A DNA stretch of 64,000 nucleotides from Actinomycetota bacterium (GTDB taxonomy: Bacteria > Actinomycetota > Actinomycetes > Nanopelagicales > Nanopelagicaceae). The notes beneath the pieces were generated by a model. The model did no database searches, was not told the origin of the DNA, and saw only the letters and a list, made by a program, of their open reading frames with translations. Below are positions 4,970 through 55,167 of the stretch, piece after piece (the stretch's first letter is position 1; each line of letters starts with the position of its first letter). The position numbers and the translations under genes were made by a program. The stretch is taken from assembly GCA_046048895.1 (NCBI GenBank), contig JBJOFF010000002.1, forward strand, positions 56,668 to 120,667, written 5' to 3'.

Positions 4970-4974
4970 TTTCA

Positions 4975-4996
4975 GAGTGTATCTCGAGTGTATATC
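4975..4996. repeat. tandem 11-nt direct repeat GAGTGTATCTC / GAGTGTATATC in the bioY-menG divergent intergenic region
   Basis: Read directly from the sequence, with 10/11 identity. It sits 6 nt from the bioY start codon and 29 nt from the menG ATG. Confidence 0.6.
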
Positions 4997-5024
4997 TAGC
5001 GATAAATGAGGCAGAATACGGCGT

Positions 5025-5720: not shown

Positions 5721-5756
5721 TTTCGCCTATCTTCGAACCACGCTTAGACTTCCAGC

Positions 5757-6116: not shown

Positions 6117-6141
6117 GAATGGGATTTGAAATGAGGACTCA

Positions 6142-21837: not shown

Positions 21838-22896
21838 ATGAGCGAATTTCAACATAAAGTCGATGCCATTCGCAATTTAATCAGAGAACGAAAGTTAGAT
21901 TCAATAGTAATCCGTAGAAATCCTAATTTGGCTTGGCTAATTTCCGGGCGCGTACATGTCCCGTTGACCTTAGATTTAGCCTGCTTTGACATGATTATTT
22001 CTTTGGAAAGAGTAGTAGCCGTAACTAATAAAATTGAAGCACCTAGATTAATTGCCGAAGAGTTGCCGGCAGAAGTTGAAGTAAATTCAGTTGATTGGTG
22101 GGAATCGCGAGATTCACAGTTGCCAATTGGAGATAAAGTTGGGTCAGATCAACCTGGAAATTCTCGAATTGATTTAGGTAGCGACATAGAGAGATTACGC
22201 CAATCTTTAAGTAAAACAGAGGTTGATCGATTTAGAGAAGTCTGCATTGACTCAGCTATCGCGCTTGGAGCAGCTGTAAAACTAACCAGGTCAAGCGATC
22301 GTGAAATTGATGTAACCAGCAGAATCGCTGAAGCGCTTTGGCAAAGTAATTTGGAATTAGTTTTTATAGGAGTCGCGGGGGAGGCCAGGGTGAAGCAATT
22401 TCGCCATCCACTTCCAACAGATTCGATAATTGGCAATCGAGTCGTAGCTTCTATCTGTGCTCGCCGTAAAGGAATGATTGCATCCGTTACCAGAATTGCA
22501 TCTTTTGAAGATGAAGTTAATTCCTATTTCAATATTTTGCAGGTGGAAGCCGCTATTTTTAATGCAACCAAAGTTGGATCAAATTTCTCGGTGCCAATAA
22601 ATGCGGCCATAAAGGCTTACCCAGAGTTTGGCTTTGACGAGCTAGAGTGGCAGAAACATCATCAAGGCGGCCCAACAGGTTTTGCTCCTAGGGATTGGCC
22701 TGCAAATAACCAAAGTCAGCAATTGATTTTGCAGGATCAACCTATTGCTTGGAACCCAACTGGTAACGGCTGGAAGGCGGAAGATACGATTTTGGCCACC
22801 GCAAACGGCGTAGATATTCTCTCCAAAGACCCAAGCTGGCCAACCATTGAAATTTCAGGCCGCAAGCGGCCCGATGTGTTGAAACTGCCAAAGTAA
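21838..22896 (+). CDS. M24 (creatinase/prolidase, pita-bread) fold protein with apparently degenerate metal site
   Basis: The layout looks like a creatinase-N-like N-terminal domain plus a pita-bread C-terminal domain (VASICARRKGMIASVTRI, HHQGGPTGFAPRD, GWKAEDTILAT). It starts 3 nt after the synthase stop. The canonical metal ligands look substituted (see findings). Confidence 0.6.
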   Translation: MSEFQHKVDAIRNLIRERKLDSIVIRRNPNLAWLISGRVHVPLTLDLACFDMIISLERVVAVTNKIEAPRLIAEELPAEVEVNSVDWWESRDSQLPIGDKVGSDQPGNSRIDLGSDIERLRQSLSKTEVDRFREVCIDSAIALGAAVKLTRSSDREIDVTSRIAEALWQSNLELVFIGVAGEARVKQFRHPLPTDSIIGNRVVASICARRKGMIASVTRIASFEDEVNSYFNILQVEAAIFNATKVGSNFSVPINAAIKAYPEFGFDELEWQKHHQGGPTGFAPRDWPANNQSQQLILQDQPIAWNPTGNGWKAEDTILATANGVDILSKDPSWPTIEISGRKRPDVLKLPK

Positions 22897-22966: not shown

Positions 22967-22986
22967 CCAAGAGGTCAAACCACTGG
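22967..22986. promoter_or_regulatory. palindromic operator copy 1 (CCAAGAGGTCAAACCACTGG), FadR/GntR-type GGT-N3-ACC core
   Basis: It lies 3 nt after the putative -10 and 8 nt before the ATG at 22994. It is near-identical to the sites at 31249..31267 and 31174..31192. Confidence 0.6.
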
Positions 22987-22993
22987 GGGTCTG

Positions 22994-24397
22994 ATGAAAT
23001 CTGTAGCGCTCTTGGCACTAGCTAGACCTACCTTTGACCTCGCTTATGCTGAGCGTAATTTTCAAGGCGCTCGCAAATTACTCCAAGATCTAGGTGTACA
23101 AGTGGTCGGACCAGAGCATCTAGTAATGACTCCGGAGGATGTACAAGCCGCCCAAATTCCAAGTGCAGATTTATATATTTTATTAACTGCATCTTTTAGC
23201 GATGCCTCGCCAGCGGTAGATCTGCTCTCAAATGTTCCAGGCCCAATTTTGGGTTGGTCTATGCGCGAACCTGGCGAAAACGGCGAGCGACTTAAATTAA
23301 ATTCAATGTGCGGCATAAATTTAGCAGCGCATGCACTTTTAGAAAATGGCCAGACACTTCGACATCTACACGGAAATTTTGATGAGCCAGAAATTAAGCA
23401 AGCGTTGTCGACGGCGCTTGCAGGTAATTTGCCTGCGGCAAATTCACCGATTGCTAAACATGATTTAGAAATGGCGTCAACTGAAGTTGTACAACATGCA
23501 CTTTCAATTTTGGCCAAGAAGAAAATTGGGGCAATTGGCGATGCGCCAAACGGTTTTACTCCTTGTAATTTTAATGCCCAGCAATTAAAAGATAATTTTG
23601 GATTAACTGTTGCTCAAATTCCAATTAAAAGTGCATTTGAGAAAATTGAGGCAGTAAGCCAAAGTGCAAAAGAAAAAGCACACGCAAATGCAGTCGCAGC
23701 TCAACCTTCGTTAGCCAATGTAAATGTTGATGAAGCAACCAAAGTAGCAGGTGTGGAAGTTGCATTAGAAAAATGGCAGGAAGATGAAGCGCTAGATGCG
23801 ATAGCAGTCAGATGCTGGCCAGAATTCCCTACCGATTTAGGAGCTTGCATCTGCTCATCTTTAGGTCGAATTTCAGATCGTGGCACAGTAACAACCTGCG
23901 AACGCGACGTACTTGGTGCGGTAACCATGTTGGTTTGTGAAGCGCTAGGTTCTGATGAAAATTACTTAGTAGATATTGTCGATCTTGATGCAAGTAAAAA
24001 TTTAGTTCGTTTATGGCACTGTGGCTCTGCCGCCACAAAATTAGCGGCAGATCCTCAAAATGCGACGCAATCGATTCATTGCAATCGGAAATTAGGCGTT
24101 GCCGGAGATTTCCCGCTCAAAACTGGTCCAGTAACCCTGTTCCGCATTGATCGGGATTTAGACCCAGCAAATAAAACTGGTCTAAGAATGGTTGTGAGCC
24201 GAGGGGAATCGATCCCAGCTCCCAATCGCTTTCAAGGAAATACTGCAACAGTTGTAACTGAACCTGATGCAGCACTTCTAGTGAATGGAATAGTCACCGG
24301 TGGATATCCGCACCATCTAGTCATCTCATGGGTAGATGTGCGACCAGGTATTCGTCGAATGGCGCAAATGTTAGGGATCCCCCTCATCGAATGGTAA
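22994..24397 (+). CDS. L-fucose/L-arabinose isomerase-family sugar isomerase (candidate sulfoquinovose-sulfofructose isomerase)
   Basis: A 467 aa protein that resembles the Fuc/Ara isomerase family overall (CWPEF, TTCERDVLGA, RLWHCGSA, GGYPHHLVISW). It is the first gene of the island operon. Confidence 0.65.
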   Translation: MKSVALLALARPTFDLAYAERNFQGARKLLQDLGVQVVGPEHLVMTPEDVQAAQIPSADLYILLTASFSDASPAVDLLSNVPGPILGWSMREPGENGERLKLNSMCGINLAAHALLENGQTLRHLHGNFDEPEIKQALSTALAGNLPAANSPIAKHDLEMASTEVVQHALSILAKKKIGAIGDAPNGFTPCNFNAQQLKDNFGLTVAQIPIKSAFEKIEAVSQSAKEKAHANAVAAQPSLANVNVDEATKVAGVEVALEKWQEDEALDAIAVRCWPEFPTDLGACICSSLGRISDRGTVTTCERDVLGAVTMLVCEALGSDENYLVDIVDLDASKNLVRLWHCGSAATKLAADPQNATQSIHCNRKLGVAGDFPLKTGPVTLFRIDRDLDPANKTGLRMVVSRGESIPAPNRFQGNTATVVTEPDAALLVNGIVTGGYPHHLVISWVDVRPGIRRMAQMLGIPLIEW

Positions 24398-24420
24398 CCA
24401 TCTCCAGAAAAGGAATATCA

Positions 24421-25851
24421 ATGAAGATAAAGACAATCCGTAAAGGCGTTGTTGCAGCGTTGGTAACAACGCTTGTGATGTCGTCATTTACATTAGCAAG
24501 AGCGGCTGAAGAGCCAGCACTTGGTAAGAAGTGCTCATCAGAGGGCATTAGTACAGGTACATCTACAAATTCACTTGTATGTACTCAAGTAGGAAATCAG
24601 CTGGTATGGAAGAGAGTCCGCCTTGGTGCGAACTACGGAACTCCAGTAGCTGCGCTTTCATCTCCAAAGGGAACAATTGAATTTCATCACTGGCGCCCAG
24701 AAGACAAAGCAGTATTTGCTGACATAATTGAAAAATTTGAAGCTACACATCCTGGTACCAAAATTAATCAGGTAATCATGAGCTCTGTTGATTACACCAA
24801 CTTAGCTTACGCAAAGATCAGCACCAATAAGAAAGCGGCAGTTTTTGTAACTAGCCGTGGTGGACAGTTTGATCAGTTCTATAAAGGCGGATTGCTAAAG
24901 GAATTTGTTGGACAGCGTTACATGAAGCAGAACGTAATTCAAAGCGCCCTTACACCAGCAACCGTTGGTGGAAAAGTTTATGGATTGCCATATCAATCAC
25001 TGTTTAACAATCCACTTTACAACGCTGAGATGTTCGCCAAGAATGGTTGGAAGGTTCCAACAACTTGGTCACAGACTCTTGCATTCTGCAAGACCGCAAA
25101 AGCAGCCGGAATTATTCCATTTGCATGGCCAGCAGCTACCCGAGGAAATGCGGGCCAGATTATCAATGCGTTCTTAATGAACTCAGATTCTTCATACGCT
25201 TCAATGGCAGCACATGTGGCTGCAGTTGATACCGGCAAGGAAGACCTTCAGACCGAGTGGTTCAAGTCAATTGCGAACAAGTACAAGCAAATGAATGACG
25301 CAGGTTGCTTCCCAGCAAATGTTTCTGGTTATAACGACACTGCAGCTCCGGCTGATTTCGCAGCTGGCAAAGCAGCTATCTATCCAACCGGATCATTCGG
25401 TATCAGCACTGTTACTAAATTGAATCCAGCAATGTCAGGAAAGATCAAAATGTTCGGAATGATCACAACTGACAGCAAGCCTCTATATGAAGGCATTACC
25501 AATAACACCTTCATTCTGCATGTAAATGCAAAGGCTTCAACCACAGATCAGAAGATTGCAAACTCATTTATCTCATGGCTAGCAACACCAGCTATGGCAC
25601 AGATTTATGCGGTTGGAACTTCACAGCATGTTTCAATCATTAACGTTGACTATTCGGACAATGTTGATCTTCTAAACGTTTCTGACATCATGGGTAAGAA
25701 GTTGTTACTTGCTCCACGCTTCTTGTTCGGCAATGTTAATGGCGTTCGTAATCCACTTGAGGACGCATTAATTGCGATTGGCGGTGGTGCAGACGTTTCA
25801 AAGACGTTAGCAGATACCTCAAAGACAATTAAGTCCAACTTGGGTGCTTAA
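24421..25851 (+). CDS. extracellular solute-binding protein, CUT1-type sugar ABC transporter
   Basis: The ATG at 24421 is preceded by AAAGGAA and gives a signal peptide MKIKTIRKGVVAALVTTLVMSSFTLARAA. The track start at 24328 overlaps the isomerase and was rejected. The body is SBP family 1-like (YPTGSFG etc.). Confidence 0.8.
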   Translation: MKIKTIRKGVVAALVTTLVMSSFTLARAAEEPALGKKCSSEGISTGTSTNSLVCTQVGNQLVWKRVRLGANYGTPVAALSSPKGTIEFHHWRPEDKAVFADIIEKFEATHPGTKINQVIMSSVDYTNLAYAKISTNKKAAVFVTSRGGQFDQFYKGGLLKEFVGQRYMKQNVIQSALTPATVGGKVYGLPYQSLFNNPLYNAEMFAKNGWKVPTTWSQTLAFCKTAKAAGIIPFAWPAATRGNAGQIINAFLMNSDSSYASMAAHVAAVDTGKEDLQTEWFKSIANKYKQMNDAGCFPANVSGYNDTAAPADFAAGKAAIYPTGSFGISTVTKLNPAMSGKIKMFGMITTDSKPLYEGITNNTFILHVNAKASTTDQKIANSFISWLATPAMAQIYAVGTSQHVSIINVDYSDNVDLLNVSDIMGKKLLLAPRFLFGNVNGVRNPLEDALIAIGGGADVSKTLADTSKTIKSNLGA

Positions 25852-25955: not shown

Positions 25956-26801
25956 ATGTCGCTGCCAGCTTTGGCAGTTTATAGTTTTCTCTACCTCTAT
26001 CCGGCAATTCAAAATTTGCTTTACTCTCTAACTCGCTGGGATGGAGTTACTGAATCTGAATTTATTGGCGCGCGAAATTTCACCTACATGTTGACCGAAG
26101 ATGTACTTTTCAGAAAAATCTTTGCCAATAACATTAAATTTGCGCTATTTGTAGTCATCTTTCAGACCGGTTTTTCCTTACTTTTTGCGATTTTTCTAGC
26201 TAGAAATTCCAAATCAAATATCTTTTTCCGCACCTTATTTTTCTTCCCAACAATTCTCTCATCCGTTTCAGTTGGATTGATGTGGACCTTTTTATATAAC
26301 CCAAACTATGGATTCATAAATGCAGCCCTTAAAGGCATAGGTCTAGATTCTCTAGCTGTCAATTGGTTGGGCGATACCAGATATTCTTTATTAGCGATAG
26401 CGATCACTCAAGTCTGGTTTCATACCGGTCAGATGGTCGTCATATACGTAGCTGGGTTACAGCAAATCCCGCAGGAACTTTATGAAGCAGCAGATGTTGA
26501 TGGTGCAACCAAATGGCAGCAATTTAAAAATGTAACCTGGCCAATGGCGCTTCCTACAACTGCAGTCGTGGTCGCCTACACCACAATCCAATCCTTTAGA
26601 GCATTTGATTTGGTTTATTCAATGACTCAGGGTGGTCCTTTAAATTCATCAGACTTACTAGTGACAAATATTTTCAATTTGGCATTCGTAGGATATAAAT
26701 TTGGATATGCAGCAGCTCAGACTATTTTCCTCGTAGTAATGATTTTGTTATTGACGTGGCTCCAGCGCCGAACTCTTAAAATAGATTATGGAGTCAAGTA
26801 A
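25956..26801 (+). CDS. sugar ABC transporter permease (MalF/BPD_transp_1 type)
   Basis: A polytopic 281 aa protein with an EAA-loop region EAADVDGATKWQQFKNVTWP. Confidence 0.85.
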   Translation: MSLPALAVYSFLYLYPAIQNLLYSLTRWDGVTESEFIGARNFTYMLTEDVLFRKIFANNIKFALFVVIFQTGFSLLFAIFLARNSKSNIFFRTLFFFPTILSSVSVGLMWTFLYNPNYGFINAALKGIGLDSLAVNWLGDTRYSLLAIAITQVWFHTGQMVVIYVAGLQQIPQELYEAADVDGATKWQQFKNVTWPMALPTTAVVVAYTTIQSFRAFDLVYSMTQGGPLNSSDLLVTNIFNLAFVGYKFGYAAAQTIFLVVMILLLTWLQRRTLKIDYGVK

Positions 26802-27616
26802 TGATTTTTAGTATCTCCAGAAGAATTTTGCTGACAATATTTGCATTAGCGGTAATTGTGCCGACTTCAATCGTTGTTTTAGGCACATTCAAGACAGATT
26901 TTGAAATTTATTCAAAGCCTCTAGCTCTGCCAAAAGCTTTTACTTTGGATAATTTCAAGGCGTTGATAGACACTGGAAATGTTTCAACTCCTTTTAAAAA
27001 TTCAGTCATTGTGTCGTTGAGTTCGGTCTTCTTCACACTGTTATTTGCAAGTTTGGCTGCTTATGCAATTTCTAGAATGTTCACTATTACTGGAAAGGTC
27101 CTCTTCTTCTTGTTCTCCTTGGGATTAGCAATTCCAGGTCAAGTCAATATTGTGCCTATTTACACCCTATTTGTGAAGTTAAATTTGACCAATTCCTTAA
27201 TAGGACTTGTTTTAGTGAATATTGCTTTAAATTTACCGCTCTCCATTTTTATTCTCACTGCTTTCCTAAAGGATCTGCCAAAGGAGATGTTTGAAGTAGC
27301 AAGCATTGATGGTGCAGGTCATTGGCGAGTATTTCGCTCTATTGCCCTCCCTCTAGCAAGACCAGCTGTAGGCGCGACTGCTATATTTTTGTTTGTCATT
27401 TGTTGGAACGATCTCTTATATCCATTAATGCTGATAAATGAACAAAGCAAAAAAACTTTGCCACTTACCCTAATTGATTTCCGTGGAGAATTTTCTACCA
27501 GTTATTCAATGTTATTTACTGCAATTTTGGTAGCTTCAATACCAATGGTCGTTATGTATCTTTTGATGCAAAAGCAATTCCAATCAGGTTTGACAGCAGG
27601 TGCGGTTAAGGGATGA
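26801..27616 (+). CDS. sugar ABC transporter permease (MalG type)
   Basis: A polytopic 271 aa protein with the EAA loop EVASIDGAGHWRVFRSIALP. TAATG junction with the upstream permease. Confidence 0.85.
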   Translation: MIFSISRRILLTIFALAVIVPTSIVVLGTFKTDFEIYSKPLALPKAFTLDNFKALIDTGNVSTPFKNSVIVSLSSVFFTLLFASLAAYAISRMFTITGKVLFFLFSLGLAIPGQVNIVPIYTLFVKLNLTNSLIGLVLVNIALNLPLSIFILTAFLKDLPKEMFEVASIDGAGHWRVFRSIALPLARPAVGATAIFLFVICWNDLLYPLMLINEQSKKTLPLTLIDFRGEFSTSYSMLFTAILVASIPMVVMYLLMQKQFQSGLTAGAVKG

Positions 27617-28311
27617 GTACTACTATAAATTCAAGAGCAGATCGCATTGCCGATCAACTTCTCGAATTAATAAGTGTTTCTAAATTAAATCCAGGTGATC
27701 GATTACCTCCGGAACGTCAATTATCTGAACTTTTAGAGGTTAGCCGTCCTTCTTTGCGTGAAGCTTTACATATTCTTCAGGCAAGAGGATTGGTCGCAAT
27801 TAAACATGGACAGGGCACGTTTGTTGAAGAACCTTTGGTTGCTCAAGAATTAAGGGCTTCAGTCTTCTCAAGAGAGCATGATTTAAATGAACTTTATGAT
27901 GCCCGAGAAGTGCTTGAAGTGCCAGCCGCAAAGTGGGCTGCGCAGAAGGCTTCTAAAGAAGATATTAGAACTTTACGTGCAACTCTAAATCAGATGTCGG
28001 CTATTGCTGAGAGTAATGAAGTTGATTATGAGCAATTAAAATTTCTAGACGCTAAATTTCACTTAACAATCGTAGGGATAGCGGAAAATAGATTTATCAA
28101 TCAGACTTTGCACGTATTACAAGAGGTCATGGGTATGTCCATGGAAACTACACTTCGTCTACCAGGCCGTATTGAGATTTCAGCAAATGAGCATCTGGCA
28201 ATATTGGATGCTTTAGAACGTGGAGATGGAGAGCTGGCGGCGAAATTGACGCATGCTCATATTGCAGGTGCGCGTAAAACGGCACTAGCTGATGCGAAAG
28301 ATAAGCATTGA
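27613..28311 (+). CDS. GntR-family transcriptional regulator, FadR subfamily (FCD C-terminal domain)
   Basis: Winged-HTH block LPPERQLSELLEVSRPSLREALHILQARGLV followed by an all-helical C-terminal domain. ATGA overlap with the permease. Confidence 0.85.
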   Translation: MSTTINSRADRIADQLLELISVSKLNPGDRLPPERQLSELLEVSRPSLREALHILQARGLVAIKHGQGTFVEEPLVAQELRASVFSREHDLNELYDAREVLEVPAAKWAAQKASKEDIRTLRATLNQMSAIAESNEVDYEQLKFLDAKFHLTIVGIAENRFINQTLHVLQEVMGMSMETTLRLPGRIEISANEHLAILDALERGDGELAAKLTHAHIAGARKTALADAKDKH

Positions 28312-29195
28312 TTGAAGTAACTTGCGTAGGCGTAATTACGATGGACACGGTTGCGTTGGTGGATAAATATCCAAGCGCAGACGAAAGAGTATTAGCTGAG
28401 AAGATTGTTAGATCTGGAGGAGGTCCGGCTTCGGTAGCTGCAGTTGCGCTTTCAAGATTAGGAATTAAATCTGCAATTGTTGGAACTATCGGAGATGATC
28501 AAGATGGTCAAACCGTTTTAGAAATATTTAAAAAAGAAGGTGTAGATACTTCTGGTATCTCAATTCAAAAAGGTGCAACTTCTGGTAGCGTCATTGTGGC
28601 ATCCAAAAGCGAAAGCACCCGAGCAATTTCAACTCGCCAGCCAGTAAGCCAAGTAAAACCAAATGAAGCAGCCAAGAAATTGGCAGCTAACTCACAGTGG
28701 ATTCATGTCGACCATGTAGGAATCAATTTATTGCCTGACCTAGGAATCAGCAGGGGAGGCGCAGTAAAGATTTCTTTCGATGCTGGATATGGGGTAAAAG
28801 ATTTTGATGTTTCAAAGGTAGATTTATTTGCACCAAATGATAAGCAGATGCGAGAGCGCTATCCAGGTTTAGATTTAAAAGAGGCAATTAAGAGGGATGC
28901 TGAAGCTGGAAAAAATTTGGTGGTTGCCACGATGGGGGCAAATGGATCCATGGGTTACTCAACGGAGTTAGATTTTGCAGAAGCTCCAGTATTTAGAACG
29001 GAAATAATTAGCACCTTAGGCGCTGGAGATGTTTTTCATGGCGCGCTCCTTGCACAACTTATCGAAGGTCATCCACTTAAGGAAGCGTTAATGCGCGCTA
29101 ATGTAGTTGCAGCTCTCTCTTGCAGAGGCCTGGATGGCCAATCTGCGATTCCCACCAAAAATGACTTAATTAAGTACCTAGAAGGGGCTAAATAA
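28308..29195 (+). CDS. PfkB-family sugar kinase, YihV (sulfofructose kinase)-like
   Basis: VTCVGVITMD, GGGPASVAAVALSRLG and TLGAGDVFHGALLA...ALSCRGLDGQSAIP resemble my memory of E. coli YihV. TTGA overlap with the regulator gene. Confidence 0.7.
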   Translation: MIEVTCVGVITMDTVALVDKYPSADERVLAEKIVRSGGGPASVAAVALSRLGIKSAIVGTIGDDQDGQTVLEIFKKEGVDTSGISIQKGATSGSVIVASKSESTRAISTRQPVSQVKPNEAAKKLAANSQWIHVDHVGINLLPDLGISRGGAVKISFDAGYGVKDFDVSKVDLFAPNDKQMRERYPGLDLKEAIKRDAEAGKNLVVATMGANGSMGYSTELDFAEAPVFRTEIISTLGAGDVFHGALLAQLIEGHPLKEALMRANVVAALSCRGLDGQSAIPTKNDLIKYLEGAK

Positions 29196-30073
29196 TGCGT
29201 GATTTATCGAAACTGGCTCGATCATCTGGTGGTTTAGCAATGGTGGCAGTCGATCAACGCGAGGCGCTCCGAGGAATGTTTGCAGCGCATCATTCAACCG
29301 CAGTTCCAGATTCACAACTTACCCAATTCAAAGTTGATGTCGCGACAGAGTTAACGCCATTTGCATCAGCGCTACTAGTAGATCAAGAATTTGGAATTGA
29401 TGCCATTGTTGATCAGAAAGCAATGGCTAGCGGTTCAGGTTTGATCGCGGCAGCTGATTTATTAATTGGTCCAGCGGGCGGTGCAGCTACTGATACTGCG
29501 GTTGATCCGGAAGTAGATCCAGTGAGAATGAAATCAATCGGCGCAGCCGGGTTAAAGTTTTTAGTACTCTGGCGAAAAGATGAAAGCCCTGAATCAAGAT
29601 TGCAACTCGTAAATCAATTTAAGGCTTATTGTGACAGAGTTGATTTACCTTCAATTATTGAAATTATTGTAAAGGCTCCGAATAGTTCAGATATTCCTTT
29701 CGATAGAGAGGCGCAGATTATTGAGGCGGCTAAAGAAGCTCGCGCTTGGAAACCAGATCTCTACAAGGCCGAAGTACCTTTCCACGGTGAAGGAGATCTA
29801 AATCAGATTGAGAGAAATGCCGCGCTAATTTCTGAAGCTATCCAAGGTCCTTGGGTGGTACTTTCAAATGGAGTTAAGCAACCAAATTTTGCCGAAGCCG
29901 TGAAGGCGTGTTGCAAAGGTGGTGCTAGTGGTTTTCTTGCTGGGCGAGCGGTTTGGGCAGATATTGTTGGCGCAACAGATATTCCAAAAGCGCTTCGTGA
30001 AGTATCTATTCCTCGTCTAAAAGAGTTAACTGCAATTGTTGATGAATATGCCAAATCTTGGAGAAGTTGGTAG
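29195..30073 (+). CDS. class I aldolase of the LacD/YihT family, YihT (sulfofructose-1-phosphate aldolase)-like
   Basis: Blocks SGGLAMVAVDQREALRGMF, LKFLVLWRKDE, FDREAQIIEAAKEA, DLYKAEVP, PWVVLSNGV and GASGFLAGRAVWA closely match my recollection of YihT. LacD, as I recall it, has AFDQRGAL instead. TAATG junction with the kinase. Confidence 0.7.
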   Translation: MRDLSKLARSSGGLAMVAVDQREALRGMFAAHHSTAVPDSQLTQFKVDVATELTPFASALLVDQEFGIDAIVDQKAMASGSGLIAAADLLIGPAGGAATDTAVDPEVDPVRMKSIGAAGLKFLVLWRKDESPESRLQLVNQFKAYCDRVDLPSIIEIIVKAPNSSDIPFDREAQIIEAAKEARAWKPDLYKAEVPFHGEGDLNQIERNAALISEAIQGPWVVLSNGVKQPNFAEAVKACCKGGASGFLAGRAVWADIVGATDIPKALREVSIPRLKELTAIVDEYAKSWRSW

Positions 30074-31171
30074 TTAATTCATTTCAGCGATTGTTACAGG
30101 GCGACACTCTGCGATGCTCTTATGAGCAGCTAAGCCAGTAATTACGCTGGTTGCGCCATCTTTTAATGTTACTTCTGCAGGGGTTTTATTAAGTATTGCA
30201 TCCCGAAATTTAACGTGTTCGATGTATGAAGCACCGTAATGATGTCCTAGATATTTAACGGAAAGATCCATCACTTGCTTAACTTCACTGCCCCTGCCAG
30301 TTCCTTCACCTACGCCCCATCCAGAGCGTTTGCCCCAATCCTCTCTTCGGGAGTAGCGAACATTTAGCGAAGGCAAGAATGATTCCAGTTTTCCCTCATC
30401 GCCGACCACAGTGAGAATCTCTTTGTCATATGAACCTTCTGCAAACATACAGAGATCAAGCATTGCACGGATACCTCCGGCATATTCAAGAATTACATAT
30501 GCGTTATCCAACATATCTGCCTGTTGGCCATCATATTTCTCATCAAGATGGTTTACATTCTGACCGCCAGATGCAAAAACTCTGATTGGTTGGCTACCAA
30601 TAATTAAATCCATCAAATTAAAGTAATGACAGCATTTCTCTACCAGCGTGCCACCAGTTCGTTTTGCAAAGCGATTCCAATTGCCTACTTTTGGGTAGAA
30701 GGGTTCACGATGTTCGCGAATTGCAACTTGGTGCACTTTGCCAACAGCACCAGCTTTCGCCCGTTGAATTACTTCGTTAACTGGGGGCATAAAACGATAT
30801 TCAAGGCCCATCCATGTCAATGCACTTCTCTTTGATTCCCAATCAATAATTTTCTTGCAGTCTTCTACAGTGGTTGCCAAAGGCTTTTCTACGAAAACAG
30901 ATAAATTTGTAGCTAAGGCATCAGATAGAACGTCAACATGAGTGTCGTTAGGGGTTGCGATTACAACCGCATCAACCAAACCAGATTCTAAAAGTTGACG
31001 GTGATCTGTAAATTGCTTTGGGTTGCTGCCTGCCACGCTACTTGCCTGAGCGATGGAATTGGAATCAGGGTCTGCGATCGCAGTGATTGTGGCACCACCC
31101 ATAATCTTGATGTTTTCAATATGTTCGCGCCCCATGCTGCCTGCGCCGATAATTCCATAACGTAGGGTCAT
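30074..31171 (-). CDS. Gfo/Idh/MocA-family NAD(P)-dependent oxidoreductase (candidate NAD-dependent sulfoquinovosidase or sulfolactaldehyde-level dehydrogenase)
   Basis: Rossmann block YGIIGAGSMG, the EKPLA motif and GGTLVEKCCHYFNLMD. I prefer the ATG at 31171 (MTLRYGIIG) over the TTG at 31177 used by the track. Its stop directly abuts the aldolase stop. Confidence 0.75.
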   Translation of the reverse strand: MTLRYGIIGAGSMGREHIENIKIMGGATITAIADPDSNSIAQASSVAGSNPKQFTDHRQLLESGLVDAVVIATPNDTHVDVLSDALATNLSVFVEKPLATTVEDCKKIIDWESKRSALTWMGLEYRFMPPVNEVIQRAKAGAVGKVHQVAIREHREPFYPKVGNWNRFAKRTGGTLVEKCCHYFNLMDLIIGSQPIRVFASGGQNVNHLDEKYDGQQADMLDNAYVILEYAGGIRAMLDLCMFAEGSYDKEILTVVGDEGKLESFLPSLNVRYSRREDWGKRSGWGVGEGTGRGSEVKQVMDLSVKYLGHHYGASYIEHVKFRDAILNKTPAEVTLKDGATSVITGLAAHKSIAECRPVTIAEMN

Positions 31172-31173
31172 GG

Positions 31174-31192
31174 CCAAAGGTTAGACCACTTG
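31174..31192. promoter_or_regulatory. operator copy 2 (CCAAAGGTTAGACCACTTG)
   Basis: 16/19 identical to copy 3. It lies at the translation start of the minus-strand oxidoreductase gene. Confidence 0.5.
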
Positions 31193-31214
31193 CTAAATAA
31201 ATGGGAGAGAAGTC

Positions 31215-31244
31215 TTGAAATTAGGCGCAAGTTCCATTTAGACT
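31215..31244 (+). promoter_or_regulatory. candidate promoter of the suyAB-like operon (TTGAAA-N18-TAGACT)
   Basis: The hexamers were read from the sequence, and the operator follows 4 nt downstream. Confidence 0.45.
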
Positions 31245-31248
31245 GCGG

Positions 31249-31267
31249 CCAGAGGTCAGACCACTGG
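31249..31267. promoter_or_regulatory. operator copy 3 (CCAGAGGTCAGACCACTGG), 19-bp near-perfect palindrome
   Basis: The reverse complement is CCAGTGGTCTGACCTCTGG, so 16/19 positions are self-complementary. The conserved 28-nt block AGACTGCGsCCA(A)GAGGTCArACCACTGG is shared with 22959..22986. Confidence 0.65.
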
Positions 31268-31298
31268 ACCGAATTCTTATGAAAAGCGAGGAGCTCAT

Positions 31299-31598
31299 AT
31301 GGCTACACCTCCACAGTTCTTGCTCCATCACGATGGCGATAACGTCGCTGTTGCAATGGACGATTTAGAACCTGGAACCTTGCATGGTCTCTCAGTTAAA
31401 GAGGGCACTGCATATACTGAAATTCTTAACCATGCGATTCCGTTGGGACATAAATTTGCATTGACAGATATCCCTGAAGGCGGAGCAATTATCAAGTATG
31501 GAATCAAAGTTGGCCTTGCGTCGGCTGCAATTAAAAAAGGCGATTACATTCACACACACAACATGAGGAGTTATCGATGGGAAGCAAGCCGCGCTTAA
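31299..31598 (+). CDS. SAF-domain small subunit of a split UxaA-type lyase/dehydratase, SuyA-like
   Basis: A 99 aa protein with SAF/UxaA-N blocks GHKFALTDIPEGGAIIKYG and GDYIHTHNM. The SD GAGGAG lies 5 nt upstream. Confidence 0.7.
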   Translation: MATPPQFLLHHDGDNVAVAMDDLEPGTLHGLSVKEGTAYTEILNHAIPLGHKFALTDIPEGGAIIKYGIKVGLASAAIKKGDYIHTHNMRSYRWEASRA

Positions 31599-32743
31599 TG
31601 GGATACCGCCGACCAAACGGCACTATCGGTATCCGCAATCACGTAGTTATTTTGCCGCTTGATGATCTATCAAATGCGGCAGCTGAGGCTGTATCAAAAG
31701 TTATTCCAGGAACTCTTGCTTTGCCACATGCCTTTGGCAGATTGCAATTTGGTCAAGATTTAGAGTTGACTTTCAAAACTCTGATTGGCACTGGCATGAA
31801 TGCAAATGTTGCTGCTGTTATCGTTATTGGTATTGAACCAAAATGGACTAATCGTGTAGCAGAAGGTATTGCCAAATCTGGAAAGCCAGTTGCCGCTTTT
31901 TCAATTGAGGGCAAGGGTGATTTACAAACAATCACCGAAGCATCTCGTATGGCTGCAATGTTCTTGCAAGATGCATCAGGTCTTGAGCGTGAACAAGCCG
32001 AAATTGGTGAAATGATTATGTCTATCAAGTGTGGAGAATCAGATACCACCTCTGGACTTGGTTCATGCCCAACAACTTCAGAAGCTGTAGATCGCTGGGT
32101 AGAAGCTGGTGGCACTGTTTTCTTTGGTGAAACTTCCGAGTTAACCGGTGGAGAGCATTTAATTGCAGATCGCTGTATTGATGATGCATGTCGAATCGCA
32201 TTTCAAAATACTTACGATAAGTACATTGAAGTTATCGAATCTACCGGAGCAAATCTGCTTGGTTCGCAGCCTACCCAAGGCAATATCGCTGGTGGCTTGA
32301 CTACCATTGAGGAGAAAGCGCTAGGAAACATCGCTAAGACAGGCTCTGTTCCAGTTGTGGGCGTTTTGGATTATGCAGAGCAGCCAGACCCGAATAAAAA
32401 AGGTCTTTACTTCATGAACTCATCTTCAGCCGCCGCCGAGTGTGTAACTCTGATGGCAGCTGGCGGAGCGGTGATTCACTTGTTCCCGACCGGACAAGGC
32501 AACGTAATCGGTAATCCAATTGTTCCGGTACTTAAGTTGACAGCAAATAAAAAGACTGCAGCTAGCATGAAAGAACATATCGATTTAGATGTTTCTGGTT
32601 TACTTCGTTATGAATACGATCTTAAAAAAGCGGGCGACATGATGATGGATGTAATTTACAAAACTGTAAATGGTCGTCTTTGTGCAGCAGAAGTTACAGG
32701 TCACCGCGAATTTACTTTCACAAAGCTTTATATCAGCGCGTGA
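31577..32743 (+). CDS. UxaA C-terminal-type large subunit, SuyB-like (candidate (R)-sulfolactate sulfo-lyase)
   Basis: A 388 aa protein with blocks GIRNHVVILP, KCGESDTTSGL, GETSELTGGEH, GGLTTIEEKALGN and HLFPTGQGN. An internal GAGGAG SD precedes the ATG, and it overlaps the small subunit gene by 22 nt. Confidence 0.7.
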   Translation: MGSKPRLMGYRRPNGTIGIRNHVVILPLDDLSNAAAEAVSKVIPGTLALPHAFGRLQFGQDLELTFKTLIGTGMNANVAAVIVIGIEPKWTNRVAEGIAKSGKPVAAFSIEGKGDLQTITEASRMAAMFLQDASGLEREQAEIGEMIMSIKCGESDTTSGLGSCPTTSEAVDRWVEAGGTVFFGETSELTGGEHLIADRCIDDACRIAFQNTYDKYIEVIESTGANLLGSQPTQGNIAGGLTTIEEKALGNIAKTGSVPVVGVLDYAEQPDPNKKGLYFMNSSSAAAECVTLMAAGGAVIHLFPTGQGNVIGNPIVPVLKLTANKKTAASMKEHIDLDVSGLLRYEYDLKKAGDMMMDVIYKTVNGRLCAAEVTGHREFTFTKLYISA

Positions 32744-33666
32744 TTTTAATTTCCGAAGATGTTTGGGGTGCGCCGTTTGAAGAGTTATCTAAACGGCGCT
32801 CCATTCATCAAGATACAGACCTTTGGCAAGATGCAAGTAAATTAAAAGAGTCCGTCAAAGAAGCTCAAGTTTTAGTAGTTAGAAATAGAACCAAAGTAAC
32901 TGCTGATGTAATCGCAGCTGCACCAAAGTTAAAGGTTATTGCTCGCGCAGGAGTAGGTCTAGATAATATAGATCTTGAAGCTGCGGATAGCGCTGGCGTG
33001 ATAGTAGTTGCGGGTTTAGGTGCAAACGCAATTTCAGTGGCTGAGATGACTTTGGGATTAGCTTTGGCTTTGAGCAGAGATATCGCAGCTCAAGATCAAA
33101 TCACAAAGTCTGGCAATTGGAATAGAACACCTGGTGTAGAAATCACCGGGAAGACTTGGGGTTTACTGGGATGTGGTGCAACCGGACGGGCTACTGCAAA
33201 CCTACTTAAAGGATTTAACTGTAAGGTGCTGGGTTTTGACCCCTTTTTTCAGGGAAATGCAGAAATTCAAATGGGTACTTGGGATGAAGTTGTTAGCAAA
33301 TCAGATTTTATCAGCGTTCATATGCCTGCAACTAGCCAAACCATCGGATCAATTAATCAAGAGTTCTTTACCAAAATGAAGTCAACTGCATTTTTGATAA
33401 ATGTGGGAAGAGGTGAGTTGGTAAACGAGGCTGATTTAATTGAAGCGCTTAAAGCAAAAACTATAGCTGGTGCAGCACTAGATGTAAGAACAACTGAGCC
33501 GCCTTTAAAAGGAGAATTAGAGCAAATTCAAAATTTGATTTTGACTCCGCATATTGCAGGCATCACCAAAGAATCACAATTAGCAATTAATCAAATATTG
33601 GTCAATAACATCGATTTGGTTTTAGATGGTAAAAAAGCAACTCATGCGGTTGGTAAAGTCTCGTGA
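32740..33666 (+). CDS. D-isomer-specific 2-hydroxyacid dehydrogenase (phosphoglycerate dehydrogenase-like)
   Basis: I place the start at GTG 32740 (GTGA overlap with the upstream stop), giving [10 protein letters not shown]. The track start at 32680 lies inside the upstream gene. NAD motif [11 protein letters not shown] and catalytic-region block TPHIAG. Confidence 0.8.
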
Positions 33667-34664
33667 CAAAATTAAAATTTGAAACAGCAGTTTTACAAGC
33701 TTCTGATTTACTGCAAGCTGCCGGAATGCCTAAAGAAGAAGCTGACATTTCGGCAAATTGCATTGTGGCTAGCGATGTTTGGGGAATCGGAAGCCACGGA
33801 CTAATGCGCTTGCCCTTTTATTTAGAAAGACTCGTAGCTGGCGGCATTAATCCAAAGGCAAAATTAAAAGAGATTACTAATCTGCCATCGTTACGAATTT
33901 TTGATGGCGAAACCGGAATGGGCCATTGGCAATTAAAAAAGGCTGCAGAAGTTGCAGCTAATTTAGCGGATTCGCAAGGGATTGCAGCAGTTGGCGTTGG
34001 TCGATCAAATCACTGTGGCGCATTGGGACTATATGTATGGCCGATGTTGCAAAAGAATTTGGTAGGCATCGTTTTCAGTAATGGGCCTGCGGTGATGCCA
34101 CCTTGGGGTGGAAATAAACCAATGCTCTCAACTTCACCAATTGCAGCAGGCATTCCTGGGAAAAATCACACGGTTATTGATTTAGCTACTAGCGCAGTAG
34201 CGCGTGGAAAAATCGCCGCTAAAGCGCAGAAAGGTGAAGCTTTAGAACCTGGCTGGGCCTTTGATCAAAATGGTCTACCAACTTTAGATGCCAAAAGCGC
34301 ATTAAATGGAATGCTTGCACCACTTGGTGGAGTTAAAGGTTACGCACTAGCGGTTTTAGTTGAGTCATTAACTGGTGCATTAGTTGGACCAAATTTGGCA
34401 GCCGATGTTCCGGATATGTTTGATAATAATATGGCTAAGTTGCCGCAAGATATTTCGCATTTTGTGATTGCAATTAAAGCTGAAGCTCTAACTGTAGATG
34501 GCCATAACCGTATGGAAGAATTTTCAACGAGGGTAGATGAAGCCGGCGGTCGAATGCCAGGGAAAAATCGAGTGAATCCATTCGAAATATCAGCAGGCAC
34601 AGAATTTGATATTGCAGACTCAGTCTCTGCAGAACTTTCCAATTGGAGTTCAAAATTATTATAA
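33663..34664 (+). CDS. Ldh_2 (malate/L-lactate/ComC sulfolactate dehydrogenase) family oxidoreductase
   Basis: Blocks GIGSHGLMRLP, RSNHCGALG, LSTSPIAAGIP, DLATSAVARGKI and GGVKGYALA. GTGA junction with the upstream gene. Confidence 0.8.
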   Translation: MTKLKFETAVLQASDLLQAAGMPKEEADISANCIVASDVWGIGSHGLMRLPFYLERLVAGGINPKAKLKEITNLPSLRIFDGETGMGHWQLKKAAEVAANLADSQGIAAVGVGRSNHCGALGLYVWPMLQKNLVGIVFSNGPAVMPPWGGNKPMLSTSPIAAGIPGKNHTVIDLATSAVARGKIAAKAQKGEALEPGWAFDQNGLPTLDAKSALNGMLAPLGGVKGYALAVLVESLTGALVGPNLAADVPDMFDNNMAKLPQDISHFVIAIKAEALTVDGHNRMEEFSTRVDEAGGRMPGKNRVNPFEISAGTEFDIADSVSAELSNWSSKLL

Positions 34665-35650
34665 CCAGAAATTTTCCTGGGCTAGCGCTGATTGCTGGCT
34701 TTGTTGCAATTGCATTTCAAGTAAATAGCTATCAACCTGCCGTAAGTCCATTAGCTCTCTGTGTTTTATTTGGATTCCTGGCATCAAACTTAGCAAGTTG
34801 GCCTAATTGGGCTGAGTCTGGAACAAAACTTGCAAGTAAACGAATAATGCGAATCGGCGTTGCATTGCTTGGTTTTCAACTTAGTGTTGAAGCTCTCCAG
34901 CAGATTGGCTTAAAAGGAGTTTTGACGGTACTTGCAGTAGTTATCTTTACCATTTTTGGAATTTTGTTTCTCTCCAAATTATTTGGCATGACTGGTGATT
35001 TAGGTTTACTAATCGGAGTTGGTTTCGGAGTCTGTGGTGCAACTGCAGTAGCGGCGATTCGGCCACAAACAAAGGCAACACAAGAAGAAACTTCTTATGC
35101 CATCGCATTGATTTCGCTTTGTGGCACTTTATCTATTGTGGTGCTCCCATTAATTGGGCACGTACTCAATCTATCGACACAAACTTTTGGCGCATGGGCT
35201 GGCGCTGCCGTGCATGATGTGGGTCAAGTTATTGCTACTGCATCCGTATGGGATCAAGATGCAATTGCTGCAGCGATTGTGGTCAAGTTAGCGCGAGTAA
35301 GCATGCTAGCCCCAATAGTTTTAATACTTTCAATTAGACATAGAAAGTATTTAAGAAGTATCAATAAAAGCGAAGAAAAAAGTGAAAAAGTTCCATTAAT
35401 TCCATTTTTTGTAATTGGTTTTATTGCAGTAGCTGTCTTTCACAATACGGTTGATATACCAACAGGTACAACGGCAAATTTTGTTTTGTTATCCAAATGG
35501 TTGCTTGGTGCGGGCTTAGTAGCCCTTGGTGCAAATGTTAAATGGAATAACATTAAAAAAATTGGCGCTAAACCAATGTTAATGGGAATGCTCGCATGGC
35601 TAATTGTTGCTGGTGTAGCACTCTTTGCAGTTAACTTAACTGGGATTTAG
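34643..35650 (+). CDS. YeiH/UPF0324 putative sulfate/sulfite exporter (PSE) family membrane protein, SuyZ-like
   Basis: A polytopic 335 aa protein with blocks GVGFGVCGATAVAA and AVHDVGQV. It overlaps the upstream gene by 22 nt (TTG start). Confidence 0.7.
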   Translation: MEFKIIITRNFPGLALIAGFVAIAFQVNSYQPAVSPLALCVLFGFLASNLASWPNWAESGTKLASKRIMRIGVALLGFQLSVEALQQIGLKGVLTVLAVVIFTIFGILFLSKLFGMTGDLGLLIGVGFGVCGATAVAAIRPQTKATQEETSYAIALISLCGTLSIVVLPLIGHVLNLSTQTFGAWAGAAVHDVGQVIATASVWDQDAIAAAIVVKLARVSMLAPIVLILSIRHRKYLRSINKSEEKSEKVPLIPFFVIGFIAVAVFHNTVDIPTGTTANFVLLSKWLLGAGLVALGANVKWNNIKKIGAKPMLMGMLAWLIVAGVALFAVNLTGI

Positions 35651-52318: not shown

Positions 52319-53515
52319 ATGGCCTATGACGTTAATCGAATTAGAAAAGAATTTCCTTCTTTGGATTCAGGTATTGCATTCTTTGATGGACCCGGAGGTT
52401 CGCAAGTACCAAGATCTGTTGGTGAGGCAATGGCCAAAGCAATCACCCAGCCAACTTCGAATAGAAATACGGTAACCATTTCAGAACAGAATGCAGAAGA
52501 TTGCGTTCAAGCTTATCGAAATGCGGTGGCAGATTTATTAAATTGTGATCCTAAGGGCGTTATCTATGGCCGCAGTTGGACGCAATTAACTTATGACATG
52601 TCGCGTAACTTGGCTAAAAGTTGGGGACCGGGCGATGAGATTATTGTTACTCGCATTGATCACGATTCAAATATTCGACCATGGATTCAAGCAGCTGAAT
52701 CAAAAGGCGCAACTGTTAAGTGGGCGGAATTTGATGTAGAAACTGGCGAACTTCCAGTTGAAGCAATTTCTTCGCTATTAACGAATAAAACTAAGTTCGT
52801 AGCTTGCACGGGTGCTGCAAATACTTTGGGAACACGTCCAGATATTGCAGCAATTGCTAAAGCAGTACATGCTGTTGGCGCGCTATTTTTAGTAGATGCG
52901 GTGCACCTAACACCACATGCGGCGATTGATTTTAAAGCGATTGGTGCTGATTTTATCGGCTTCTCTTCCTACAAGATATTTGGACCTCACTGCGGAACCA
53001 TGGTTGCTGATCCTGCGCTCTTAGAAACTATTAAAAACGATAAATTAGCTCCGTCTACTACGGTAGTTCCAGAGCGATTTGAATTCGGAACGTTGCCGTA
53101 TGAAATTATGGCTGGCGTTAGCGCTTCCATAGATTTCATTGCCGGAATGGATCACGAAGCGACTGGAACTCGTAGAGAACGTATCGTTAAATCAATGGCC
53201 GCTTTAGAGCAGTACGAGCATCCACTTTTTGAGTATCTGGAAAGAGAGATCAAGGGATTGCCTGGTGTAACTACTTATGGCCACGCAAAACACCGCACTC
53301 CAACGCTCTACTTTAATTTTGCGGGTAAAGATTCAGTTGAAATCTATAAGCACCTTGCAAAGTTGAAAGTTAATGCACCAGCGCACAATTTCTATGCTTA
53401 TGAAGCCTCACACAAGTTGGGATTAGGAGATAAAGGTGCGATGAGAGCTGGGCTGGCACCATATTCAACAAAAGAAGATATCGATAGGTTGGTTGACGGG
53501 CTAAAGAGCTTTTAA
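52319..53515 (+). CDS. aminotransferase class V-fold PLP enzyme (cysteine desulfurase-like)
   Basis: 398 aa, with a PLP-lysine region FSSYKIFGPH. Blocks HDSNIRPW and DAVH are also present. Confidence 0.7.
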   Translation: MAYDVNRIRKEFPSLDSGIAFFDGPGGSQVPRSVGEAMAKAITQPTSNRNTVTISEQNAEDCVQAYRNAVADLLNCDPKGVIYGRSWTQLTYDMSRNLAKSWGPGDEIIVTRIDHDSNIRPWIQAAESKGATVKWAEFDVETGELPVEAISSLLTNKTKFVACTGAANTLGTRPDIAAIAKAVHAVGALFLVDAVHLTPHAAIDFKAIGADFIGFSSYKIFGPHCGTMVADPALLETIKNDKLAPSTTVVPERFEFGTLPYEIMAGVSASIDFIAGMDHEATGTRRERIVKSMAALEQYEHPLFEYLEREIKGLPGVTTYGHAKHRTPTLYFNFAGKDSVEIYKHLAKLKVNAPAHNFYAYEASHKLGLGDKGAMRAGLAPYSTKEDIDRLVDGLKSF

Positions 53516-54886: not shown

Positions 54887-55167
54887 TACTTCTTACCTTT
54901 GAACATTTCTAGCATGCGATCTGTTACCACAAAGCCGCCCACCATATTTATAGTGGCCAGTACCACCGCAATTAATCCGAGGATAAGTTCTAGACCACCT
55001 TCAGCATGGCCAGCAACCAAGATAGCGCCAACCAAGATGATTCCGTGAATTGCATTTGCACCTGACATCAAAGGCGTATGCAATGTAGTTGATACTTTAG
55101 AAACCACCTCAAAACCAACGAAAACCGCCAATGTAAAGATGGCTAATAGCGCTAAGCCATTGCTCAT
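54886..55167 (-). CDS. pntAB: NAD(P) transhydrogenase subunit alpha part 2 (membrane)
   Basis: A 93 aa, 3-TM protein with HTPLMSGANAIHGII. ATGA/TAATG-type junctions on both sides. Confidence 0.9.
   Translation of the reverse strand: MSNGLALLAIFTLAVFVGFEVVSKVSTTLHTPLMSGANAIHGIILVGAILVAGHAEGGLELILGLIAVVLATINMVGGFVVTDRMLEMFKGKK

Follow-up and report, generated by a model that had tools for sequence, protein, structure and literature searches.

A predicted suyA-suyB-slcC-comC-suyZ operon for sulfolactate racemization and desulfonation adjoins a sulfoquinovose gene set in acI actinobacteria

Introduction

The sulfolactate sulfo-lyase SuyAB consists of a small SAF-like α subunit of ~10 kDa and a β subunit of ~42 kDa, and it depends on Fe(II) to split (R)-sulfolactate into pyruvate and sulfite. 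In UxaA and GarD the two parts are fused. Sulfoglycolysis delivers (S)-sulfolactaldehyde and (S)-sulfolactate, and an S-to-R conversion is needed before SuyAB, which requires the (R) enantiomer, can act (PMC12421959, PMC13436972). SlcC and ComC together interconvert (S)- and (R)-sulfolactate via sulfopyruvate (PMC12421959). Here we describe a DNA stretch of 64,000 nucleotides (the window; contig JBJOFF010000002.1, positions 56,668 to 120,667) from a member of the Nanopelagicaceae, in which five genes at 31299-35650 are predicted to encode these enzymes and an exporter. We propose, with a probability of about 0.8, that this suyA-suyB-slcC-comC-suyZ operon is a known sulfolactate racemization and desulfonation system and the final stage of a sulfoquinovose regulon.

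The closest described systems are those of Chromohalobacter salexigens (Denger & Cook 2010) and P. wurundjeri (PMC12421959). They use the same four protein families as the window, namely a small subunit without a Pfam entry, PF04295+PF20629, PF00389+PF02826, and PF02615, and the chemistry proposed for them is also the same, (S)-sulfolactate being converted to sulfopyruvate, then to (R)-sulfolactate, and finally to pyruvate and sulfite. The order SuyA-SuyB-SlcC-ComC at P. wurundjeri loci 257-260 is identical to that in the window, and P. wurundjeri likewise has a sulfosugar pathway in the same locus and a cluster that lacks a classical sulfolactaldehyde dehydrogenase (PMC12421959). The two differ in the upstream route, which is of the Entner-Doudoroff type for sulfofucose in P. 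wurundjeri and a predicted sulfo-Embden-Meyerhof-Parnas (sulfo-EMP) route for sulfoquinovose in the window. They differ also in the exporter, a TauE protein encoded elsewhere in P. wurundjeri as against a translationally linked YeiH/SuyZ-type protein, and in the host, which here is a genome-streamlined freshwater actinobacterium.

In two further suyAB loci, suyAB-suyZ on plasmid pTAV3 of Paracoccus versutus and hpsN-hpsO-suyAB of Cupriavidus pinatubonensis, there is no slcC or comC beside suyAB and (R)-sulfolactate comes from 2,3-dihydroxypropane-1-sulfonate (DHPS) via HpsN, whereas the window carries the racemizing pair. The Paracoccus locus has a PF03601 exporter gene directly 3' of suyB. 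On the sulfoquinovose side, Arthrobacter sp. AK01 makes sulfolactate via the sulfo-EMP pathway. A sulfolactaldehyde dehydrogenase is reportedly encoded in its cluster, and the sulfolactate is said to be excreted. The Arthrobacter sulfo-EMP cluster is actinobacterial, as is that of the window, and has SqgA, an ABC importer, an isomerase, a PfkB kinase, and a class I YihT-type aldolase (Kaur et al. 2023, PMC10755693). In the window cluster the sulfolactaldehyde dehydrogenase is absent and a desulfonation module is attached.

The Five-gene Operon

Five open reading frames (ORFs) on the forward strand occupy 31299-35650, with successive overlaps of 22, 4, 4, and 22 nt. The first two, suyA (31299-31598, ATG start, 99 aa, Pfam SAF) and suyB (31577-32743, ATG, 388 aa, Pfam GD_AH_second and GD_AH_C), are predicted to encode the small (α) and large (β) subunits of (2R)-sulfolactate sulfo-lyase. 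Gene 3 (32740-33666, GTG, 308 aa, Pfam 2-Hacid_dh and 2-Hacid_dh_C) is a candidate for an slcC-type (S)-sulfolactate dehydrogenase gene, and gene 4 (33663-34664, GTG, 333 aa, Pfam Ldh_2 with 300 bits) for a comC-type (R)-sulfolactate dehydrogenase gene. Gene 5 (34643-35650, TTG, 335 aa, Pfam PF03601) encodes a putative sulfite/sulfate exporter of the SuyZ/YeiH type.

The suyA and suyB genes share 31577-31598, and a GAGGAG sequence at 31565-31570 lies 6 nt 5' of the suyB ATG at 31577. A second GAGGAG at 31288-31293 precedes the suyA ATG at 31299. Stop and start codons overlap as GTGA at 32740-32743 (genes 2/3) and at 33663-33666 (genes 3/4), and the start of gene 3 at GTG 32740 is backed by identical 308-aa public gene calls. 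The final overlap of 22 nt holds only with TTG 34643 as the start of gene 5. This codon is the sole canonical start that retains the full PF03601 domain, and the same 335-aa product is called by NCBI and JGI. In relatives the exporter starts ~6 codons later, at an ATG that follows the comC stop immediately or closely. The junction between genes 4 and 5 is the least certain of the four, and its details are not conserved. A sequence-only reading of this DNA had described five translationally coupled genes, and every ORF, the 22-nt and GTGA overlaps, and the GAGGAG sequence were found where it had placed them, the last overlap with the proviso just given.

This gene order recurs, with all five genes, in at least eight other species-level Nanopelagicaceae/Planktophila genomes, with 66-96% protein identity, and it is also present on metagenome contigs. 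The five-gene set is a real, conserved operon. The NCBI record labels its products as hypothetical proteins RL193_248-252. JGI names given to the exact proteins or close relatives are '(2R)-sulfolactate sulfo-lyase subunit alpha' (gene 1) and 'subunit beta' (gene 2), 'D-3-phosphoglycerate dehydrogenase/(S)-sulfolactate dehydrogenase' (gene 3), and '(2R)-3-sulfolactate dehydrogenase (NADP+)' (gene 4).

The Lyase Pair

On sequence grounds we assign the 99-aa and 388-aa proteins to SuyAB. The subunits are separate, a SAF protein and a PF04295+PF20629 protein encoded by overlapping genes, as expected of SuyAB. A scan of one genome per species gave more than 595 relatives of SuyB, of which the best 80 are all at least 58% identical to the window protein and span Actinomycetota, Chloroflexota, Bacillota, Acidobacteriota, Desulfobacterota, Pseudomonadota, and others. 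A survey of 85 related loci with 10-kb flanks (loci of this survey are given as L numbers below) found suyA directly 5' of suyB in every case (85/85).

Identity to the window SuyB falls off sharply beyond this group. By tblastn of plasmids and chromids it is 72-73% for Rhodococcus, 60% for Sinorhizobium mexicanum, 59% for C. pinatubonensis, and 55-56% for Paracoccus (56% for P. versutus SuyB), and every other 'UxaA family hydrolase' has at most 41%. Proteins from metagenome-assembled genomes (MAGs) of Desulfovibrio are 60% identical. The small subunit encoded beside suyB in C. pinatubonensis is 40% identical to the window SuyA, and strain JMP134 of that species is named as a source of characterized SuyAB (PMC12890257). 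Phylogenetic placement had been proposed as a check on the 388-aa protein, and in a neighbor-joining (NJ) tree it falls inside a tight SuyB clade, apart from other split pairs (26-39% identical), E. coli UxaA (28%), and GarD (24%), all of which lie outside.

Gene context divides in the same way. The Cupriavidus pair directly follows hpsN, hpsO, and a transporter gene, which together form a DHPS-to-sulfolactate cluster, and the Paracoccus pair is followed by a gene for a 'putative sulfate exporter family transporter.' Split pairs of at most 41% identity occur in sugar-acid contexts, for example beside a 2-keto-3-deoxygluconate permease, in fucose/rhamnose-type clusters, and in haloarchaeal sugar-acid clusters.

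These contrasts bear on the alternative that the lyase pair is a UxaA/GarD-family dehydratase for sugar acids, with the two dehydrogenases acting on a non-sulfonated 2-hydroxy or 2-oxo acid. The family names in Pfam and NCBI (D-galactarate/altronate dehydratase or 'UxaA family hydrolase') point that way, as does the fact that GarD is the only solved relative of the large subunit (E = 1e-28), and a Variovorax split pair of 38% identity is also flanked by a hydroxyacid dehydrogenase gene and an Ldh-family gene; the architecture is thus not unique to sulfolactate. We nevertheless consider a dehydratase very improbable given the gap between the at least 55% identity to proteins in sulfonate clusters (Cupriavidus hpsN/hpsO, Paracoccus SuyZ, and Desulfovibrio) and the at most 39% identity in sugar-acid contexts, a neighborhood of the lyase pair that is sulfoquinovose-specific in its entirety, and a sulfate-exporter-family gene that is translationally linked to the lyase operon. 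The identity gap and the sugar-acid contexts of the most similar non-SuyB pairs led us to reject the dehydratase assignment. The earlier preference for a SuyAB-like lyase over UxaA/GarD is upheld by SuyB-clade placement, by the identity gap, and by the sulfonate-cluster contexts.

The Variovorax pair lies at 3523-8286 of locus L089 (Variovorax sp. PBL-E5 plasmid 3), where a gene for a TTT binding protein accompanies those for the hydroxyacid dehydrogenase and the Ldh-family oxidoreductase. The arrangement parallels a racemase-plus-lyase module and is possibly for a different 2-hydroxy acid.

The Dehydrogenase Pair and the Exporter

The validated SlcC and ComC of C. salexigens belong to PF00389+PF02826 and PF02615, respectively (Table S2, PMC12421959), and the families of gene 3 are the same as those listed for SlcC. 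The best NCBIfam match of the gene 3 product is phosphoglycerate dehydrogenase (PGDH) TIGR01327, over the catalytic region only, with 274 bits. PGDH TIGR01327 is also the best match (260-360 bits) of eight SuyAB-linked 2-Hacid_dh proteins from six phyla, which are short forms of ~310 aa. Among the eight is the protein of S. mexicanum, which is given as an SlcC homologue (Table S6, PMC12421959).

An NJ tree was calculated from 183 sequences. These were the 33 SuyAB-linked proteins, eight proteins of the family that the same loci encode without linkage to SuyAB, and, of the 150 closest representatives of 50%-identity clusters, 142. Every one of the 33 linked proteins, gene 3 included, falls in one clade that contains short-form proteins only and is split from all 48 long-form PGDHs in 112 of 200 bootstraps. 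A single residue also separates the groups. Directly after the substrate-anchoring Arg, the 33 linked proteins all have Asn (VR-N-[RQ]-T), whereas 47 of the 48 long PGDHs have Ser (VR-S-x-T) and none has Asn. In gene 3 this signature is R48-N49-R50-T51, of which R48-N49-R50 align with R60-S61-R62 of E. coli SerA. The Arg/Glu/His triad is intact, R224/E253/H271 aligning with SerA R240/E269/H292; we take the roles of the anchoring Arg and of R240/E269/H292 in catalysis to be those familiar from work on SerA. Also present are a GxGxxG motif and a conserved Asp (GFDPF; Asp in 32/33 sequences), consistent with a preference for NAD. We predict that gene 3 encodes an SlcC-type enzyme that is probably NAD+-linked.

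SerA, to which gene 3 has its best NCBIfam and PDB matches, shares the fold and the triad, and its substrate, D-3-phosphoglycerate, has sulfolactate as its sulfonate analogue. Gene 3 differs from SerA in being a short form without ASB/ACT domains, in having Asn for a near-invariant Ser, and in lying in a catabolic operon.

The gene 4 product has L-sulfolactate dehydrogenase NF040650 as its best NCBIfam match, a model presumably built on the archaeal ComC of coenzyme M synthesis. It also matches the L-sulfolactate dehydrogenase structure PDB 2x06 (E = 2.4e-46) and is 51% identical to the product of an Ldh-family gene in a Rhodococcus suyAB cluster. In ~30 loci of the 85 in the survey, spread over at least six phyla, genes resembling slcC and comC lie beside suyAB. 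Gene 3 (2-Hacid_dh) and gene 4 (Ldh_2) belong to families of opposite stereospecificity, and the pair of a D-specific and an L-specific dehydrogenase seen by the sequence-only reading thus corresponds by family to the published two-enzyme SlcC/ComC sulfolactate racemase.

For gene 5, the best NCBIfam match is TIGR00698, the YeiH family of putative sulfate exporters, and a PF03601 domain spans residues 12-314 (248 bits). Its full-length identity to the product of the PF03601 gene directly 3' of suyB in P. versutus is 28%. The YeiH/SuyZ-like exporter suggested before is supported by these two family matches and the Paracoccus homology. By family, gene 5 would be a SuyZ/YeiH-type exporter, with sulfite or sulfate as its predicted cargo. 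Nanopelagicales lack assimilatory sulfate reduction (PMC12817590), and for this reason export is a likelier fate of released sulfite than assimilation, in keeping with the linked exporter.

Several figures weigh against these assignments. Genes 4 and 5 score below the NCBIfam cut-offs of their models (203 against 500 bits and 199 against 233 bits). Identity between gene 3 and the alphaproteobacterial SlcC homologue from S. mexicanum reaches only 35%, and in score gene 3 is about equally near to true PGDHs, with 188 bits to human PHGDH as against 160-167 bits to that homologue. The link to the validated C. salexigens SlcC runs through the S. mexicanum homologue, and gene 4 was compared with the Rhodococcus protein and PDB 2x06. 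The bootstrap support of the SlcC clade is moderate (56%, NJ). In phmmer searches with gene 3, long-form PGDHs (~210-220 bits) rank above proteobacterial SlcC homologues (160-190 bits). Identity to the Rhodococcus homologue is 52%.

Such figures could be read as a sign of convergence, with gene 3 a PGDH-type enzyme recruited separately to the oxidation of (S)-sulfolactate and not an orthologue of proteobacterial SlcC. The sequence-only reading had leaned this way in calling the PGDH-like enzyme a possibly non-orthologous replacement for SlcC. This part of it did not survive the comparison, SlcC itself being a PF00389+PF02826 protein. Short form and PGDH as best NCBIfam match are common to all eight linked homologues searched, the linked homologues make up one NJ clade with no long-form PGDH, and the Asn beside the substrate-anchoring Arg is invariant among them. 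In addition, sequences from Chloroflexota, Bacillota, and Acidobacteriota are intermediate and connect the actinobacterial with the proteobacterial group. Independent recruitment is in our judgment quite unlikely, and on the grounds of shared Pfam architecture, short form, clade, and Asn signature we rejected the replacement in favor of an SlcC-type gene 3.

The Sulfoquinovose Gene Set and Its Control Regions

The genes upstream of the operon form a sulfoquinovose gene set of the sulfo-EMP type. On the forward strand these encode an SftI-like sulfoquinovose isomerase (22994-24397), a solute-binding protein (about 24418-25851), two ABC permeases (25956-26801 and 26801-27616), a GntR/FCD regulator (27613-28311), a PfkB protein that is a sulfofructose kinase candidate (28308-29195), and a YihT-type sulfofructose-phosphate aldolase (29195-30073). 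On the reverse strand, divergent from suyA, lies sqgA (30074-31177), encoding a homologue of NAD+-dependent sulfoquinovosidase with a Gfo/Idh/MocA fold. The transport proteins, the regulator, and the kinase were assigned with Pfam.

The aldolase and SqgA have the closest structural matches. The aldolase, named 'sulfofructosephosphate aldolase' by JGI, matches the solved sulfofructosephosphate aldolase YihT (PDB 7ag1) with E = 1.6e-70 as against 1e-19 for tagatose-bisphosphate aldolases. The sqgA product matches PDB 8qc2 and 8qc3 with E = 1e-108 and 5e-106, the next, unrelated match being at 1e-29; we identify the two with the structures of SqgA from Kaur et al. 2023. The sole NCBIfam match of the isomerase is SftI (275 bits, below cut-off), and it has no match in the PDB. 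Against the PDB the solute-binding protein finds generic sugar-binding proteins only.

With the suy operon the set comes to 13 genes, an arrangement that has stayed together as an inherited block in those Nanopelagicaceae loci that cover the region (L007, L009, L011, and L060). The two transcription units also share a sequence motif. In the sqgA-suyA intergenic control region (31178-31265), two copies of an operator-like motif, AGGT[TC]AGACCACT, lie on the forward strand at 31178-31190 and 31253-31265, and a third copy, AGGTCAAACCACT, lies on the same strand at 22972-22984, 10 nt before the start codon of the isomerase gene. The motif, AGGT[CT]A[GA]ACCACT, has the palindromic core GGTCAGACC, and the number of copies observed was reached in 0 of 100 shuffles. 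Its positions in the sqgA-suyA region are kept in L005-L009, L011, L015, and L060, and the position upstream of the isomerase gene is kept in L005, L007, and L060. Since the same conserved motif stands at both promoter regions, the copies suggest one sulfoquinovose/sulfolactate regulon; its regulator is probably the GntR/FCD protein of the cluster. Scans of the DNA for promoter and terminator consensus sequences gave fewer matches than in shuffles.

Several features of the gene set and its relatives may be added. The longest ORF of the solute-binding protein opens at ATG 24328, which gives a 70-nt overlap with the isomerase gene; a likelier start is ATG 24418, where a signal-peptide-like sequence, MKIKTIRKG..., begins. 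The window cluster has no ABC ATPase gene. In L005 (ENA contig k141_6988903), a relative with identities from 76% (SlcC) to 96% (SuyB), the isomerase, regulator, kinase, aldolase, SqgA, and suy operon are kept, and the genes for the solute-binding protein and both permeases are missing. In L012, L013, and L014, which are MAGs labeled 'uncultured Clavibacter' or Actinomycetota, the PfkB gene is followed directly by suyA with no YihT-type aldolase gene between them, and in L014 the SqgA and isomerase genes lie upstream on the same strand. In genomes of Chloroflexota and Bacillota (L017, Thermogemmatispora aurantia; L050; and L074), homologues of the SftI-like isomerase are encoded no more than 10 kb from suyAB, so that combined loci for sulfoglycolysis and SuyAB are not confined to acI; L017 also has ABC permease and aldehyde dehydrogenase genes.

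A gene for a conserved 352-aa protein (21838-22896) lies just upstream of the cluster, outside the region marked by the operator-like motif. It has no Pfam hit and a weak match to the Xaa-Pro dipeptidase PDB 1wy2 (E = 1e-4). It appears to be a divergent M24 Xaa-Pro-dipeptidase-like protein that is probably unrelated to the pathway. The NAD(P) transhydrogenase genes pntAB adjoin suyAB in Cupriavidus (L001, 11743-14706) and Paracoccus (L002, 15018-18045), where they could matter for an NAD+/NADPH-coupled redox shuttle of sulfolactate or DHPS. In the window pntAB lies 18 kb away on the reverse strand (53501-56279), and at that distance its presence is probably coincidental.

The Proposed Pathway and Sulfolactaldehyde Oxidation

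The gene content can be arranged into a pathway. The activities of its enzymes, the cofactors that they prefer, the ion that is exported, and the assignment of the regulator are all predictions. The ABC importer, SqgA, the SftI-like isomerase, the PfkB kinase, and the YihT-type aldolase would take sulfoquinovose to dihydroxyacetone phosphate and (S)-sulfolactaldehyde, which a dehydrogenase encoded elsewhere would oxidize to (S)-sulfolactate. The SlcC-type enzyme of gene 3, probably with NAD+, would oxidize (S)-3-sulfolactate to 3-sulfopyruvate, and the ComC-type Ldh_2 enzyme of gene 4 would reduce the latter to (R)-3-sulfolactate. Heteromeric SuyAB would cleave (R)-3-sulfolactate to pyruvate and sulfite, and the YeiH/SuyZ-type membrane protein would export sulfite or sulfate. 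The suy module would thus form the final stage of one sulfoquinovose regulon. The stereochemical logic of the sequence-only reading, with (S)-sulfolactate coming from sulfoquinovose and a lyase that wants the (R) form, agrees with the published statements cited above.

The further point against this proposal is the step at which the two halves meet. Aldehyde dehydrogenase genes are absent from the 64-kb window, from 8 kb past its 3' end, and, within 10-kb flanks, from every Nanopelagicaceae locus (L005-L011, L015, and L060). A phmmer search with the aldehyde dehydrogenase from the Rhodococcus cluster, run against every ORF of 70 aa or more in the window, gave no match, and Pfam searches of the larger unassigned window ORFs found a thiamine pyrophosphate enzyme, PntB, a photolyase, MFS transporters, and aminotransferases but no aldehyde dehydrogenase. 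The 352-aa protein upstream of the isomerase was ruled out as the dehydrogenase, as it is M24 Xaa-Pro-dipeptidase-like. Elsewhere, aldehyde dehydrogenase genes do lie beside suyAB, in Rhodococcus (L003), Thermogemmatispora (L017), Acidobacteria (L057, L059, and L072), and others. The sequence-only reading had not remarked on this gap. With no such gene nearby, the link from sulfoglycolysis to the module is a hypothesis, and sulfolactaldehyde oxidation would be either encoded elsewhere or carried out by an unrecognized enzyme. A housekeeping aldehyde dehydrogenase from another part of the genome could close the gap. The published tandem pathway of P. wurundjeri has a gap at the same step (PMC12421959).

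The missing dehydrogenase would fit a role of the module in cross-feeding, in which it would degrade sulfolactate (or sulfolactate derived from DHPS) taken up from other bacteria instead of sulfolactaldehyde formed in the cell, with the sulfoquinovose genes as neighbors that share only a substrate theme. Many suyAB-slcC-comC loci of other phyla indeed have no sulfoglycolysis genes, and a 2026 review describes SuyAB organisms as secondary degraders. We regard cross-feeding as unlikely, however. The cluster contains no sulfolactate or DHPS transporter of the TTT, TRAP, or MFS type, its sole importer being a sugar-type ABC system; the isomerase operon and the suy operon are preceded by the same motif, which is conserved across species; the 13 genes are co-inherited as a block; and the gap itself could be filled by an aldehyde dehydrogenase encoded elsewhere in the genome. 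We accordingly retain the proposal that the suy operon completes sulfoquinovose breakdown.

Discussion

The module is of the known SuyAB-SlcC-ComC(-SuyZ) type and contains no new type of enzyme; its gene order has been published and its JGI names have been assigned already. What is unusual is that it adjoins, and is probably co-regulated with, a full sulfoquinovose-breakdown set in acI (Nanopelagicaceae). Our searches found no paper that pairs sulfoquinovose with Nanopelagicales terms in the searchable literature, in which the presence of the module in acI actinobacteria, and its joining to sulfoglycolysis there, is new.

The acI lineage (Planktophila/Nanopelagicaceae) is the most abundant lineage of freshwater bacterioplankton and is dominant in lakes. 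Reviews describe sulfoquinovose turnover as a relay in which sulfoglycolytic primary degraders feed proteobacterial desulfonating secondary degraders, and according to a July 2026 review complete sulfoquinovose catabolism by a single organism is undemonstrated outside oxygenolytic routes. We see an even chance that the 13-gene acI regulon lets one streamlined cell mineralize sulfoquinovose fully, with neither an oxygenase nor a secondary degrader. As no aldehyde dehydrogenase is encoded in the cluster or the 64-kb window, the sulfolactaldehyde step may use an unrecognized or moonlighting enzyme.

The value of the locus is ecological: in acI, a single conserved locus, apparently controlled by one regulator, holds both stages of sulfoquinovose breakdown. 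The locus predicts complete mineralization of sulfoquinovose by a single abundant freshwater lineage. If it is functional, a single abundant population could use a large share of the carbon of freshwater sulfoquinovose and return its sulfur as sulfite or sulfate.

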